Below are positions 25,547 to 33,486 of a DNA stretch of 33,486 bases, in pieces. This DNA comes from Alphaproteobacteria bacterium (lineage in GTDB: Bacteria; Pseudomonadota; Alphaproteobacteria; Rhodospirillales; Rhodospirillaceae), in NCBI GenBank assembly GCA_015228695.1, contig JADGDA010000001.1, positions 16,283-49,768 on the forward strand, in the 5' to 3' direction. Position 1 is the first letter of the stretch; each line of letters starts with the position of its first letter. The notes under the pieces were generated by a model that worked only from the letters and a program-made list of their open reading frames with translations, was not told the origin of the DNA and did no database searches. A program made the translations under genes and the position numbers.

Positions 25547-25591
25547 TGGTTGCGGGGGCAGGATTTGAACCTGCGACCTTCAGGTTATGAG
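25547..25591 (-). pseudogene. Truncated tRNA-Met(CAU): 3' half only (anticodon loop to CCA); att-type remnant
   Basis: The minus strand reads CTCATAACCTGAAGGTCGCAGGTTCAAATCCTGCCCCCGCAACCA. That is an anticodon loop CUCAUAA, a T-arm GCAGG-TTCAAAT-CCTGC, and an acceptor 3' strand plus ACCA identical to the E. coli tRNA-fMet 3' end as I remember it. Sequence upstream (..ACTTCGT) cannot form the anticodon stem or D-arm, so the gene is not intact. Confidence 0.8.
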
Positions 25592-25977
25592 ACGAAGTTC
25601 ATGCCTTGTTCTAATCGCTTGTTCTGATTGCCGGAATCCGGCATGTCTTTGAATGTCTTGAGTTATTCAAAACATTTTCTTGCCTCTCGACACAAGCGTT
25701 CGCCGCCCAGAGCCATCCGAATGCCCTCCGCACACGGAGTTGGCACGGAGTCGGTGATTATCCGGTAGAGTTGCAGTCAATCGACGAGAGGGTGCCCCAC
25801 GCCAACGATCCGCCTTCATGGCGGTGGACCAGAGAGTGGGGTTGGGGTAAGAATTTATTTAGGGACCGCAATGACACTGGTGCCAGGACCGCATCCTGGC
25901 GCAGGGAAATAACAATCGCAGCAATACATAAGGCTTGTCTTGTGAACTTGGCCTTATGATTAAGGGAACGACCAATC

Positions 25978-26964
25978 ATGGCAACTGCGGATCACGTCAA
26001 GGCACTGATTCGAAGTCACTCGGAGGGTGACAACGAACGGTTCTATGCGGTCGCCTTGCAGGTCGCCGCCCAGGCTGCCCGTCAGGGCCACACGAAGTTC
26101 GCCCAGGAACTCCGCGATCTGGTTGATCGCTCGAAGGTGCGCGGTGAGGCCCCTGCTCCCGGACAAAGGACGAAGCCGATCCCGATCGTCCAGCCGCGCG
26201 GCGAGCTCGCCGGACTCCTCTCGGCGGCTTTCCCAACGATCCGACTGGCCGACATGGCTCTTGACCGGCAGGTTCGGACGCGCCTTGAGCGCATCCTTCT
26301 GGAACAGCGCCAGCGCGAGGAACTCAGAGCCCACGGTATGTCACCAATTCGCAAGCTTCTCCTCATAGGCCCTCCCGGCACCGGCAAGACGATGACCGCC
26401 TCGGCGCTGGCCGGCGAACTGGGCGTTCCCCTCTTCACGATCCAACTCGACGGGCTGATCACCCGCTATCTTGGAGAGACCGCCGCCAAGCTGAGACTGA
26501 TTTTCGAGGCGATCCAGCAGACGCGGGCCGTTTACTTTTTTGACGAGTTCGATGCCCTGGGCAGCGAGCGCGCAACGAAGAACGAGGTCGGAGAAATCCG
26601 ACGGGTGTTGAACTCGTTCCTTCAGTTCCTGGAGCAAGATGATTCGGACAGCATCGTCGCGGGGGCGACCAATCACCCGCAGATCCTGGACCGGGCCTTG
26701 TTTCGCCGTTTCGATTCCGTGATCGAGTACAGCCTGCCGTCGCCCGATATCTCGGAGCAGGTCATGCGGGACCGCCTGGCGTTGCTCGATACGTCCCAGG
26801 TGAACTGGCCCAACGTGGTGGAGGCGGCAAAAGGACTCTGCCACTCCGACCTCACCCGCGCCTGCGAACGGGCCGCCAAGAACGCCATCCTCCAGCGCCA
26901 TACCTGCGTCGACAGCCAGGAGTTCGTTGAAGCGCTGCAAGAGCGGCGCGCCACGCATCGGTGA
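25978..26964 (+). CDS. AAA+ ATPase (classic-clade AAA; IetA-like)
   Basis: ORF 25978..26964 with AAGGGA 10 nt upstream of the ATG. Walker A is LLLIGPPGTGKT (26368..26391), Walker B is VYFFDEFD and sensor-1 is GATNHP. The gene is followed 21 nt later by an S8 protease gene. Confidence 0.9.
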   Translation: MATADHVKALIRSHSEGDNERFYAVALQVAAQAARQGHTKFAQELRDLVDRSKVRGEAPAPGQRTKPIPIVQPRGELAGLLSAAFPTIRLADMALDRQVRTRLERILLEQRQREELRAHGMSPIRKLLLIGPPGTGKTMTASALAGELGVPLFTIQLDGLITRYLGETAAKLRLIFEAIQQTRAVYFFDEFDALGSERATKNEVGEIRRVLNSFLQFLEQDDSDSIVAGATNHPQILDRALFRRFDSVIEYSLPSPDISEQVMRDRLALLDTSQVNWPNVVEAAKGLCHSDLTRACERAAKNAILQRHTCVDSQEFVEALQERRATHR

Positions 26965-32600: not shown

Positions 32601-33442
32601 TGAGCGGACCATGCATCCTGAATGGTCTGCCGCTTTCGCTTGAATTCTCCCAGCGTCTGGCTCGCGTCCGTCTGAGATTTCTTTCGCTCATCGGTCCTGA
32701 ACCGCTTGACCACTCTCGTGGACCTGCGGCCCAGGTCCTCCAGCGGTTTCAGGCCGGTTAGCTGGGCGACGGCCTGCGCAAATGTCGTCTTCTCGTCAAA
32801 GCGCATATGTGCGGCAATTCCGGGCAAGAGCGTTCCCGCCTCGACAGCAACCTCGGGAATGGAGAGGTCTTCAAGCCCGGTCACGGACATGCTGATCCTG
32901 CCGCGCTCGTTCACGCCCAGGGCCCGCCGCACGACGCATATGTCGTTCGATCCTTCTGCATGGAATGTCAGTTGCGCCCAGGTGTCGATTCTAGGCTGAT
33001 CACCAAGGGCTTCAAGTTCTGCACCCGATGGGATCGGGACAATCGGTGGAAGCGAAAAGCCGTGTTCTTTGCCCTGAGTCTCATCTTCGCCGTCACCTGC
33101 CGTCCGGAACACCTCCATCGGCTCATGCACGTCGTCAGGCATATGCTGCGAGCGCAACGCTTTGCCTGTCAGGCACCAGATGATCACATTTTGCAGGGCG
33201 GTCTTGCCGGCACCGTTGAAGCCGCTGATCAGGGTTACGTCGCGCTCGATGTCAAGCGCGAAATCATCAGGGGCCTCGCCCTGCGCGTTGCAATGCCTGT
33301 GCAGCCCGGCAATCCGGTGCGCTTCGACGCGTCTCAGTCTCCACAGCCGCTTTGGCGCGGGGGAAGCACCCTTTATCTCTTTTGGAGCAGGGGCCTCCTC
33401 AGCGAGCGCCTTCAGTATGTCCTCGATTTCGCGGGCCTGCAC
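29633..33442 (-). CDS. Giant SMC/Rad50/RloC-like ABC ATPase with a mid-coil CxxC motif, fused to two C-terminal LexA-type (S24) peptidase-like modules
   Basis: ORF 29633..33442 (1269 aa). The listed start is GTG, and the frame stays open to the right window edge (..FYSRHRDLWPRSKT upstream), so the true start may lie beyond 33486. Walker A is GFNGAGKT (33200..33223), CPVC lies at 32141..32152 and Walker B-like CMLLDD at 31115..31132. The S24-like modules lie at about 30038..30325 and 29657..29980. Confidence 0.85.
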   Translation of the reverse strand: MQAREIEDILKALAEEAPAPKEIKGASPAPKRLWRLRRVEAHRIAGLHRHCNAQGEAPDDFALDIERDVTLISGFNGAGKTALQNVIIWCLTGKALRSQHMPDDVHEPMEVFRTAGDGEDETQGKEHGFSLPPIVPIPSGAELEALGDQPRIDTWAQLTFHAEGSNDICVVRRALGVNERGRISMSVTGLEDLSIPEVAVEAGTLLPGIAAHMRFDEKTTFAQAVAQLTGLKPLEDLGRRSTRVVKRFRTDERKKSQTDASQTLGEFKRKRQTIQDAWSAQPDLSDPASVVAPDEEASKGQSKNSISDARKWLEEKKKGLESAAETILGQALQLASRQDVDSILQQLRAATDLLKPGALGGLPSVALIKSLRGVTDGDIGAGESLIEDMVSRAAAVTERLRNKQEAARWQLYARVAAWHREHHDGAELENCPVCGTDLEKVPPDALVDKGVKEALWLCAEADADAAKGVQEWEQDAAREFLERLPENLRAFADKAPPAGLLQIYRKAYLEELLADRTFEGRIQALKRNAVVLWEEAVTAAALPDMPAAKSVNWPDEFKAGMLATRVGNIVQAIRISRHRSASADALKKFVERYIGAPSQPETGSAKVSGVGDTQPDKLPLRDQIETLRMCVENTAPIVSLLRQLDELETTRKQYAALMERLGLIDRAADAMDEFAGFEALVFQQVSGLIQILDRGTKEWLGRIYSPHYRGGPSYSGFDATEEKGIGLRAGIGDMQVSAHEIMNASLLRACVWAFVFSLWERVRSNAGGIDCMLLDDPQTHFDPINAENLAAAIPQMPAQDMRPVITSNDYRFLAAIRDKLPRQSTDVPSWHALVINPISSSRLTAALSPAAEEIFELRKDWQADDNNAAKAQQFVSKVRLYVENRLWDLLATDPMVLHKPTLADLVNALRSARNNGERPFDETPFETLLSHMALRDTAPFYTIINKAHHRLHEITPFEAGQVSEVFDQIDRLLRSCSAAYARFMGRLTREDRDLFLIDTPPAPALAMLALKQFPLLGEVSARSSVNVLALAQADESFDMSKLGEVALYGVRSPGLGSFALQGQVVIVSLDQEADDGDPVVALSDGKIYLRLLLGDRRDPSRVVLACDRTGTERVPPTLVLPRAKTRLLPIIGVLYDQENFGGKEEACLIDASKILEKNLVAARVTDDSAYPVIRSGDIVLLEAVQNTTPEEIRCLEDRIVAATVDDCGETFAYLKRLGKEVAPDLRILENVGLKGSALAVLTSGDGGRENIPTLQALWRAHGTFRLKTR

Positions 33443-33486
33443 GGTCTTGGAGCGCGGCCAGAGATCGCGGTGACGAGAATAGAAAG

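Follow-up and report, generated by a model that had tools for sequence, protein, structure and literature searches.

We analysed a 33,486-nt stretch of DNA, hereafter the window, from a Rhodospirillaceae genome (assembly GCA_015228695.1, contig JADGDA010000001.1, positions 16,283 to 49,768), whose right-hand part, from position 25547 onwards, is the edge of a genomic island. From left to right, this part holds a remnant of a tRNA-Met gene, a pair of genes for an AAA+ ATPase and an S8 protease that we assign to the system known as IetAS and, convergent with the pair and cut by the end of the window, a very long gene, here termed the giant gene, for an SMC-like ATPase that ends in two S24 modules (Table 1). 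An earlier interpretation of this DNA, made from its letters without database searches (the sequence-only reading), had proposed that the three genes might form one functional module. We find it considerably more probable that two independent mobile defence units lie side by side here, at the edge of an island integrated at a tRNA-fMet gene. IetAS and the giant gene are most likely cargo of one integration hotspot, not one machine, and the giant gene is a good candidate for a new single-gene defence system.

Table 1. Features of the window and of homologous loci (L numbers) discussed in the text; aa, amino acids; CTD, C-terminal domain; ORF, open reading frame; AF2, AlphaFold2.
Feature	Position	Strand	Basis or remark
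3' part of a presumed initiator-type tRNA-Met(CAT) gene, 45 nt, att remnant	25547..25591	-	anticodon loop to CCA
Upstream part of IetAS cassette	25809..25977	+	L075/L076 similarity begins at 25819 and 25809
IetA, classical-clade AAA+ ATPase, 328 aa	25978..26964	+	Pfam AAA 7e-32; PADLOC IetA
IetS, S8 subtilase, 842 aa, Y4kK_N-type N-terminus	26986..29514	+	Pfam Peptidase_S8 8e-57; PADLOC IetS
Convergent intergenic spacer, 118 nt, stable hairpin	29515..29632	.	RNA fold z = -2.46
Giant gene, 5' end cut by window	29633..33486 (ORF 29633-33442, 1269 aa)	-	AAA_23, SMC_N, Peptidase_S24
Walker A, GFNGAGKT	33200..33223	-	invariant or nearly so in alignments; Lys is K80
CPVC, zinc-hook-like CxxC in mid coiled coil	32141..32152	-	C431 and C434; between long helices in AF2 model
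Walker B/D-loop region, LLDDPQ(THFD)	31109..31126	-	L774, D775, D776 and Q778 invariant; P777 nearly so
Conserved all-helical domain, aa 848-1012	30407..30901	-	AF2 helices; many invariant residues, e.g. NKAHH
S24 module 1, LexA-CTD-like, catalytically dead, aa ~1013-1127	30062..30406	-	profile and alignment
S24 module 2, intact Ser-Lys dyad, aa ~1128-1269	29636..30061	-	Ser1168 at 29939-29941; Lys1215 at 29798-29800
14-bp hairpin beside CCA end, outside island	25512..25542	.	terminator-like site; the hairpin here differs in L001 and in L074
DUF4238 gene, in 0.53 G+C patch	23900-24871	-	left of att remnant, outside island
Nucleotidyltransferase gene	22843-23601	-	left of att remnant, outside island
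HEPN gene	22457-22846	-	left of att remnant, outside island
AAA_14/DUF4143 gene	21093-22343	-	PADLOC candidate PDC-S01, 3e-92; left of att remnant
Fic/DOC gene upstream of giant homologue, 516-580 aa	L029/L031/L032/L040 (~8100-9870)
DUF2971 gene upstream of giant homologue, 260-300 aa	L007/L008/L013/L025
CorA-like gene upstream and PLD-like gene downstream of giant homologue	L051 4423-5682, 9672-11282
SbcD/SbcC-like genes beside giant homologue	L053 13816-14448; L054 13815-18836; L055 13706-17922		co-directional once, convergent once

In the pair, ietA precedes ietS on the plus strand and 21 nt separate the two genes. The ATPase is matched by the PADLOC profile for IetA (PDLC02196, E = 3.6e-74, residues 3-325) and the protease by that for IetS (PDLC02198, E = 1e-39); the NCBIfam models IteA_antiphage (3.9e-60) and IteS rank top as well, yet under their equivalog cut-offs. 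IetA carries Walker A (GPPGTGKT) and Walker B (FFDEFD) motifs, the Asp, His and Ser motifs of subtilases are all present in IetS, and the Y4kK_N domain is annotated on near-identical IetS homologues. By these profiles and motifs the AAA+/S8 pair is recognised as the known two-gene IetAS system, and an anti-phage or toxin-antitoxin function is predicted for it from the intact motifs. The first description of IetAS was of a plasmid-stabilising toxin-antitoxin pair in which the protease IetS is the toxin and the ATPase IetA the antitoxin; the system also protects against phage, through a mechanism stated as not known, and a three-gene form, ietHAS, adds an SNF2 helicase (PMC13069673).

The extent of the IetAS unit is revealed by its close relatives. 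The same trio of genes is present on three sister contigs, two from metagenomes (L001 and L002) and one from assembly GCA_042466065.1 (L074, in which IetS is 93% identical to that of the window). A relative with an 89% identical IetS (L075) has an integrase gene, ietA and ietS, and then a trypsin-like gene and HATPase_c_3 genes; in a relative with an 85% identical IetS (L076), convergent PLD, MZB and helicase genes come after IetAS. Neither has the giant gene. DNA alignment to the window is confined to 25819-29512 in the former and to 25809-29511 in the latter, from which we conclude that the mobile unit consists of about 160 nt of upstream DNA and the two genes, ending at the IetS stop, and hence that the giant gene lies outside it. 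IetAS is thus a self-contained cassette spanning ~25809-29514, in which positions 25809-25977 would contain the promoter and leader, and such precise boundaries should be useful for annotation. Beyond the cassette, the IetS stop ends at 29514 and the stop codon of the giant gene begins at 29633, leaving a spacer of 118 nt where L001 and L074 have 15 nt. The extra sequence folds into a hairpin, CAGGCAAGU...ACUUGCCUG, which may act as a bidirectional terminator or represent a small inserted element.

Just as IetAS has close relatives that do without the giant gene, the giant gene is found for the most part without IetAS. Species-representative genomes were scanned for giant homologues with 10-kb flanks, yielding 39 loci, and loci from metagenomes, plasmids and integrative and conjugative elements (ICEs) were then added, bringing the set to about 50 loci whose flanks reach 8 kb or more. 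IetA or IetS genes of the type seen in the window were present at none of the 39 species-representative loci, and with queries from a second IetAS subfamily a single locus of the 39 (L027) showed an IetS-like gene within 10 kb. Over the ~50 loci, IetAS lies within 10 kb of the giant gene in four lineages, in four different arrangements, two of them directly adjacent. In the window and its three sister contigs the cassette adjoins the giant gene convergently; on B. barranii plasmids IetA, IetS and the giant gene follow one another in the same direction, 233 nt apart and with an IetAS of a different PADLOC subfamily; on M. extorquens pCMU01 IetAS is 5.3 kb away, with an IS3 element and Shedu in between; and in L027 the IetS-like gene is 8 kb away, beyond a type I restriction-modification (R-M) system. 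The closest relatives of the giant gene, in Oceaniradius (87% identity), a Rhodovibrionaceae metagenome-assembled genome (84%), L020 (79%) and L033 (77%), all lack IetAS, and so does L058, whose giant protein is 90% identical to homologue P0002.

What stands beside the giant gene varies even between near relatives. The giant gene of B. barranii, itself frameshifted, has a 95% identical sister in B. quebecense with AbiE in the IetAS slot, and in an 81% relative from R. leguminosarum the slot holds transposition genes and an IS630 element lies inside the giant gene. Such differing contents beside the Bradyrhizobium and R. leguminosarum giant genes mark the slot as a swap-in site. Clustering of the flanking open reading frames of 42 loci returned no conserved neighbour. 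On an ICE of P. aeruginosa the giant gene stands alone between genes of the opposite strand, near CAP12/TIR genes and ParDE, and elsewhere its neighbours include type I R-M, a ResIII-type restriction enzyme, Shedu, AbiE, SLATT with a reverse transcriptase, DUF3320, a DUF4433 and macro-domain gene pair, and a RES-domain gene. Type IV secretion system and relaxase genes are also among its neighbours, and integrases are found at seven loci. On Bradyrhizobium and Croceicoccus plasmids SbcD adjoins the giant homologue (L053, L054 and L055), joined in L054 and L055 by an SbcC-like gene; this adjacency is limited to two lineages and was not seen at the other loci.

The giant gene is longer than the window allows one to see. 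Its frame remains open to position 33484 (FYSRHRDLWPRSKT) and there matches residues ~56-69 of homologues of 1335-1338 aa, which implies that about 69 codons lie outside the window and that the true length is ~1338 aa. Homologues of ~1335 aa occur in Alpha-, Beta- and Gammaproteobacteria (Oceaniradius, Citromicrobium, Rhizobium, Burkholderia, P. aeruginosa) and are named in the sources just "AAA family ATPase" or "ATP-binding protein". NCBIfam has no family for them and PADLOC gives a weak match to LmuB alone (2e-11); literature searches for a fusion of SMC or Rad50 with S24 or LexA returned nothing relevant, and none of 50,697 phage records contained a homologue of the giant protein.

Modelled with AF2, residues 1-870 (predicted local distance difference test score, pLDDT, 83) form an ABC head split by long helices, and the best PDB fold matches of the model are Rad50 (7zr1, E = 1e-11), LmuB (9hqu_B, 1.4e-7) and Wadjet JetC. 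In an alignment of 79 giant homologues, from which all conservation counts given here are taken, both cysteines of the CxxC motif are invariant (79/79), and the motif reads CPVC or CVVC in homologues only 25-35% identical. The N-terminal 100 aa gave no Pfam match at E <= 5. With its split head and CxxC coiled coil, the giant protein belongs with the "CxxC SMCs" (Rad50, SbcC, LmuB, RloC) as defined in PMC12663957.

Synonymous divergence (dS) from L001 is 0.094 for IetA, 0.146 for IetS and 0.146 for codons 701-1269 of the giant gene, and rises to 0.455 for codons 1-700; this jump within the giant gene indicates a recombination breakpoint near 31340 (codon ~700). The sensor half, comprising the N-lobe of the head and the coiled coil (codons 1-700), has been exchanged between alleles. 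We had considered reading the difference in identity to L001 between IetAS (96%) and the giant gene (90%) as a sign of separate histories of the two units, and dropped this argument, since the breakpoint falls near residue 700, inside the giant gene. Separately, several giant homologues have been inactivated: that of B. barranii by its frameshift (L053, ~13216) and that of R. leguminosarum Vaf10 by its IS630 insertion (L057, 13066-14181), while the homologue in the metagenome contig L058 carries a probable 4.5-kb insertion (5179-9677). Repeated inactivation suggests that the giant gene is costly or dispensable.

The C-terminal third of the protein combines a helical domain with the S24 modules. 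Scanned on its own, the last 255 aa match Pfam Peptidase_S24 with 31.8 bits (gathering score 23.3) in two stretches; the AF2 model of residues 835-1269 (pLDDT 86) shows the helical domain followed by two beta-rich modules; and the whole C-terminal model matches the C-terminal domains of LexA, UmuD' and lambda CI, which taken together indicate two S24-like modules. For the helical domain, Pfam gave no match at E <= 5 and the fold search returned only chance-level matches to Cry toxins. Module 1 has lost the catalytic dyad, with Gly, Ser or Thr at the Ser position and Arg at the Lys position. It keeps a LexA-like strand, LPxLGxVSA-R, in which, when aligned by eye, Ala1021 (79/79) and Arg1022 (78/79) occupy the position of the LexA Ala-Gly bond; a PDB profile search with this module returns LexA (E = 0.003), and Pfam S24 matches the same module in homologue P0111. 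In module 2, Ser1168 and Lys1215 are present in 79/79 sequences and also in plasmid homologues of 25-35% identity, and no small-residue pair is found at the scissile position in a by-eye alignment with LexA. At residue 1091 (30170-30172), the second Arg of the module 1 motif YxRR, the window has Leu where 77/79 homologues have Arg, which may be a lineage-specific change or early decay; apart from this residue the open reading frame is intact.

A phmmer search of 1.84 billion representative sequences with the C-terminal 435 aa gave 195 hits (~195 clusters at 50% identity). The full-length hits are all 1280-1360 aa long and are matched at ~880-1330, the shorter ones are probably gene fragments, and none of the 195 has the C-terminal module fused to another sensor. 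As judged from these sequences, the order of SMC ATPase, helical domain and tandem S24 modules is a fixed architecture, and other sensors have not acquired the module.

The left boundary of the island is set by the att remnant at 25547-25591. The minus strand of this interval, CTCATAACCTGAAGGTCGCAGGTTCAAATCCTGCCCCCGCAACCA, corresponds to the anticodon loop, variable loop, T-arm and 3' strand of the acceptor with CCA of a tRNA that we take to be initiator-type by comparison with E. coli tRNA-fMet; the anticodon stem has no matching 5' half in the bases to the right of the remnant. The 25-nt core of the remnant has no second copy in the window, and 100 shuffles yielded none. Neither ARAGORN nor Rfam finds an intact tRNA in the window, nor was any Rfam family detected there, and a permissive Rfam scan of 25450-25700 gave noise only; the remnant was identified by eye, with support from the sister contigs. 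Similarity of the window to L001, L002 and L074 ends no more than 5 nt from the CCA end, past which each sister contig runs into a different hairpin and different flanking genes. The remnant in L074 (1985-2030) shows compensatory T-stem changes, from GCAGG/CCTGC to AGAGG/CCTCT, as expected where the remnant comes from each host's own tRNA gene, and the hairpin at 25512-25542 probably served the original tRNA gene as its terminator. G+C content, ~0.68 up to ~24 kb, is ~0.60-0.63 from 26 kb to the end of the window.

Beyond the giant gene the sister contigs carry a tyrosine integrase gene, 0.5-1.7 kb away (515 nt in L001; behind an insertion sequence (IS) element in L074). An intact tRNA or a second att copy was not found on the stretches of the sister contigs that were fetched, and in L001 there is no second att copy within 18 kb. 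The L001 integrase abuts KdpE of a complete kdpFABCDE operon (L001 436-8272), with no tRNA in between; either the island of L001 is larger than it appears or the integrase is not at its end. In L012 a member of the giant family adjoins an integrase and the same 45-nt remnant (9165-9209) and has no IetAS, and the remnant also bounds another giant-gene island in L059 (12406-12430). An integrase family targeting tRNA-fMet appears to spread the giant gene. On the other side of the remnant, the genes at 21093-24871 look like older cargo related to defence or toxin-antitoxin systems, and the presence of such genes on both sides marks the tRNA-fMet locus as a hotspot.

Much of what the sequence-only reading described at this locus agrees with these results. 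Its AAA+, S8, SMC-like and double S24 domain calls are confirmed by Pfam, AF2 and fold matches; its coordinates for the 118-nt gap between convergent units are correct; and the att junction that it placed at a tRNA-Met gene is upheld by the 45-nt remnant and the loss of similarity to the sister contigs at the CCA end. Its statement that the cargo consists of ATPases and proteases only holds for the genes visible, and otherwise reflects where the window stops, with the sister contigs continuing into the IS element and tyrosine integrase. Its length of 1269 aa for the giant protein was that of a reading frame cut by the window end.

What the giant protein does can be proposed from its architecture. 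It would dimerise through the CxxC hook, as Rad50, SbcC and LmuB do, and sense abnormal DNA (ends, hairpins or phage replication intermediates) by ATP-dependent engagement of its heads. The tandem S24 pair would mimic the dimer of LexA C-terminal domains, and DNA sensing, possibly with the help of RecA filaments, which take part in the cleavage of LexA, UmuD and CI, would turn on the live site of module 2. The active site would then cut the giant protein itself or a cellular or phage target, and so stop infection, making the protein a one-chain analogue of Lamassu or RloC with a protease as output. The fuller proposal, of an undescribed single-gene immune family in which a zinc-hook SMC sensor controls a built-in pseudo-dimeric Ser-Lys protease, and whose placement beside IetAS could reflect cooperation, is tentative, and we hold it to be somewhat more doubtful than probable.

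Several points weigh against regarding the giant gene as a free-standing immune gene that owes nothing to its neighbours. Its putative role in defence is drawn from genomic context alone, and the protein has no obvious toxic effector domain besides the protease. S24 enzymes normally cleave themselves and are not general proteases, and a canonical cleavage site, Ala-Gly or Cys-Gly, is missing from both S24 modules, which leaves self-cleavage of the giant protein uncertain. At some loci a variable co-directional gene (Fic/DOC, DUF2971 or CorA-like) lies no more than ~150 nt upstream, and these genes may be optional effector partners in some clades; the window lineage has no co-directional gene close upstream. 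Finally, the four juxtapositions with IetAS among ~50 loci may exceed chance.

This last point bears on the two explanations that tie the giant gene to IetAS. Were the three genes an obligate module, as the sequence-only reading had proposed, the giant protein would be a third IetAS component, for instance a sensor that, once cleaved, yields a product for IetS to process or for IetA to unfold. The tail-to-tail arrangement, with 118 nt between the units here and 15 nt in L001 and L074, the retention of the trio in three sister contigs, the existence of three-gene variants such as ietHAS (PMC13069673) and the co-directional order of IetA, IetS and giant gene on the B. barranii plasmid all speak for such a module. 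Against this, the two units are transcribed separately and towards each other; the cassette reaches no further than the IetS stop, and relatives of each unit lack the other (IetS relatives at 85-89% identity, giant relatives at 77-90%), with no adjacency in any of the 39 representative genomes; B. barranii carries a frameshifted giant gene, and AbiE fills the slot in the 95% identical sister; and the IetAS pairs found near giant genes come from two different PADLOC subfamilies. We consider an obligate module very improbable, IetAS being known alone and close relatives of each unit occurring without the other. A looser bond, in which independent systems are co-selected for better joint protection, against different phages or as backup, fits the four independent juxtapositions within 10 kb, and pairs of defence systems, including pairs with IetAS, can be synergistic (bioRxiv 10.1101/2022.08.21.504612). 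In all four cases, however, the gene order differs, and in two of them Shedu with IS3 or a type I R-M system intervenes. Alphaproteobacterial plasmids often carry IetAS (80 of 430 plasmid hits are from Agrobacterium and Rhizobium), so that some overlap with the giant gene is expected, and a mechanistic dependency is disfavoured by the differing orders, by the systems in between and by the pseudogenised copy. We hold such facultative cooperation to be unlikely. The sequence-only reading had itself allowed for coincidental clustering in a defence island, and this is the explanation that we favour, given the cassette boundary and the separate occurrence of the two units in nearly all other genomes. 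It had also suggested that homologues never linked to AAA+/S8 pairs would speak against a module; linkage within 10 kb does exist in three further lineages, and direct adjacency is found in none of the 39 representatives.

A different question is whether the giant gene belongs to defence at all. It could be a factor for DNA repair or mobile-element maintenance, such as an SOS-linked paralogue of Rad50 with a switch like that of UmuD or LexA. Its best folds are of the Rad50 and SbcC type, its S24 domains resemble LexA and UmuD', SbcD and SbcC-like genes adjoin it on Bradyrhizobium and Croceicoccus plasmids, and it often resides on ICEs and plasmids. Yet its patchy and mobile distribution, variable defence neighbours, frequent inactivation and allelic recombination follow the pattern of a defence gene and not that of housekeeping repair; no UmuC partner was seen at the loci, SbcCD is adjacent in two lineages only, and no homologue was found in the phage records. 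We judge a repair or maintenance role to be rather unlikely, and retain two independent defence units, brought together by a common integration site, as the preferred reading.

A three-gene module would, if true, have been a new kind of protease/ATPase cascade; the evidence favours ordinary clustering, and the value of the locus is left in the giant gene, a member of a widespread family of fixed architecture that extends to ICEs of P. aeruginosa. The combination of a Rad50/Lamassu-like sensor and a LexA-like protease in one chain was not found reported in the literature searched. Should the giant gene turn out to act in immunity, SMC-based immunity would gain a single-chain form with proteolytic output, and the gene would offer a tractable one-gene system in which to ask how SMC-like sensors recognise foreign DNA.

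Set beside known systems, the pair in the window shares gene order, tight spacing and catalytic motifs with IetAS as known from Gao_Iet, from ietA/ietS of the Agrobacterium Ti plasmid and from y4kL/y4kK-type pairs. It is divergent from the E. coli IetAS exemplars, falling below the NCBIfam equivalog cut-offs, and otherwise nothing unusual was noticed in it; in contrast to ietHAS, with its helicase gene ietH, it lacks a third gene in the same direction. The giant protein, for its part, resembles LexA, UmuD and lambda CI in the S24 fold of both modules, in the dyad of module 2 and in the scissile-bond strand of module 1. Unlike LexA and CI, it has no N-terminal DNA-binding domain and carries its S24 domains in tandem in one chain, where LexA forms a homodimer, and where LexA has its scissile Ala-Gly, module 1 has Ala-Arg and module 2 no such pair.

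The ATPase part is closest in fold to Rad50 and SbcC, with a Walker A/B head split by a CxxC coiled coil, and differs from them in a C-terminal extension of ~430 aa and in having no conserved Mre11/SbcD partner, SbcD being adjacent in L053, L054 and L055 only. It is like Lamassu in its CxxC-type SMC ATPase, its weak LmuB profile match (2e-11), its LmuB fold match and its setting in defence islands, and the logic of Lamassu, in which a DNA-structure sensor governs an effector (PMC12663957), is the one that we propose for it. The giant is nonetheless a single polypeptide, about twice the length of short LmuB proteins and with a better fold match to Rad50 than to LmuB, and it has no LmuA or LmuC gene or profile match: PADLOC found no LmuA match in the protein, no LmuC-like conserved partner emerged across the 42 loci, and S24 output domains were not found reported for Lamassu in the literature search. 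RloC too holds sensor and effector in one polypeptide, an ABC ATPase whose coiled coil bears CxxC and to which an anticodon nuclease is fused (PMC2610378). Although the effector of the giant protein is a helical domain with tandem S24 modules and not a nuclease, and no RloC sequence match was seen, the two proteins have in common a Rad50-like ATPase, a coiled coil of the zinc-hook type and a C-terminal effector carried in the same chain.

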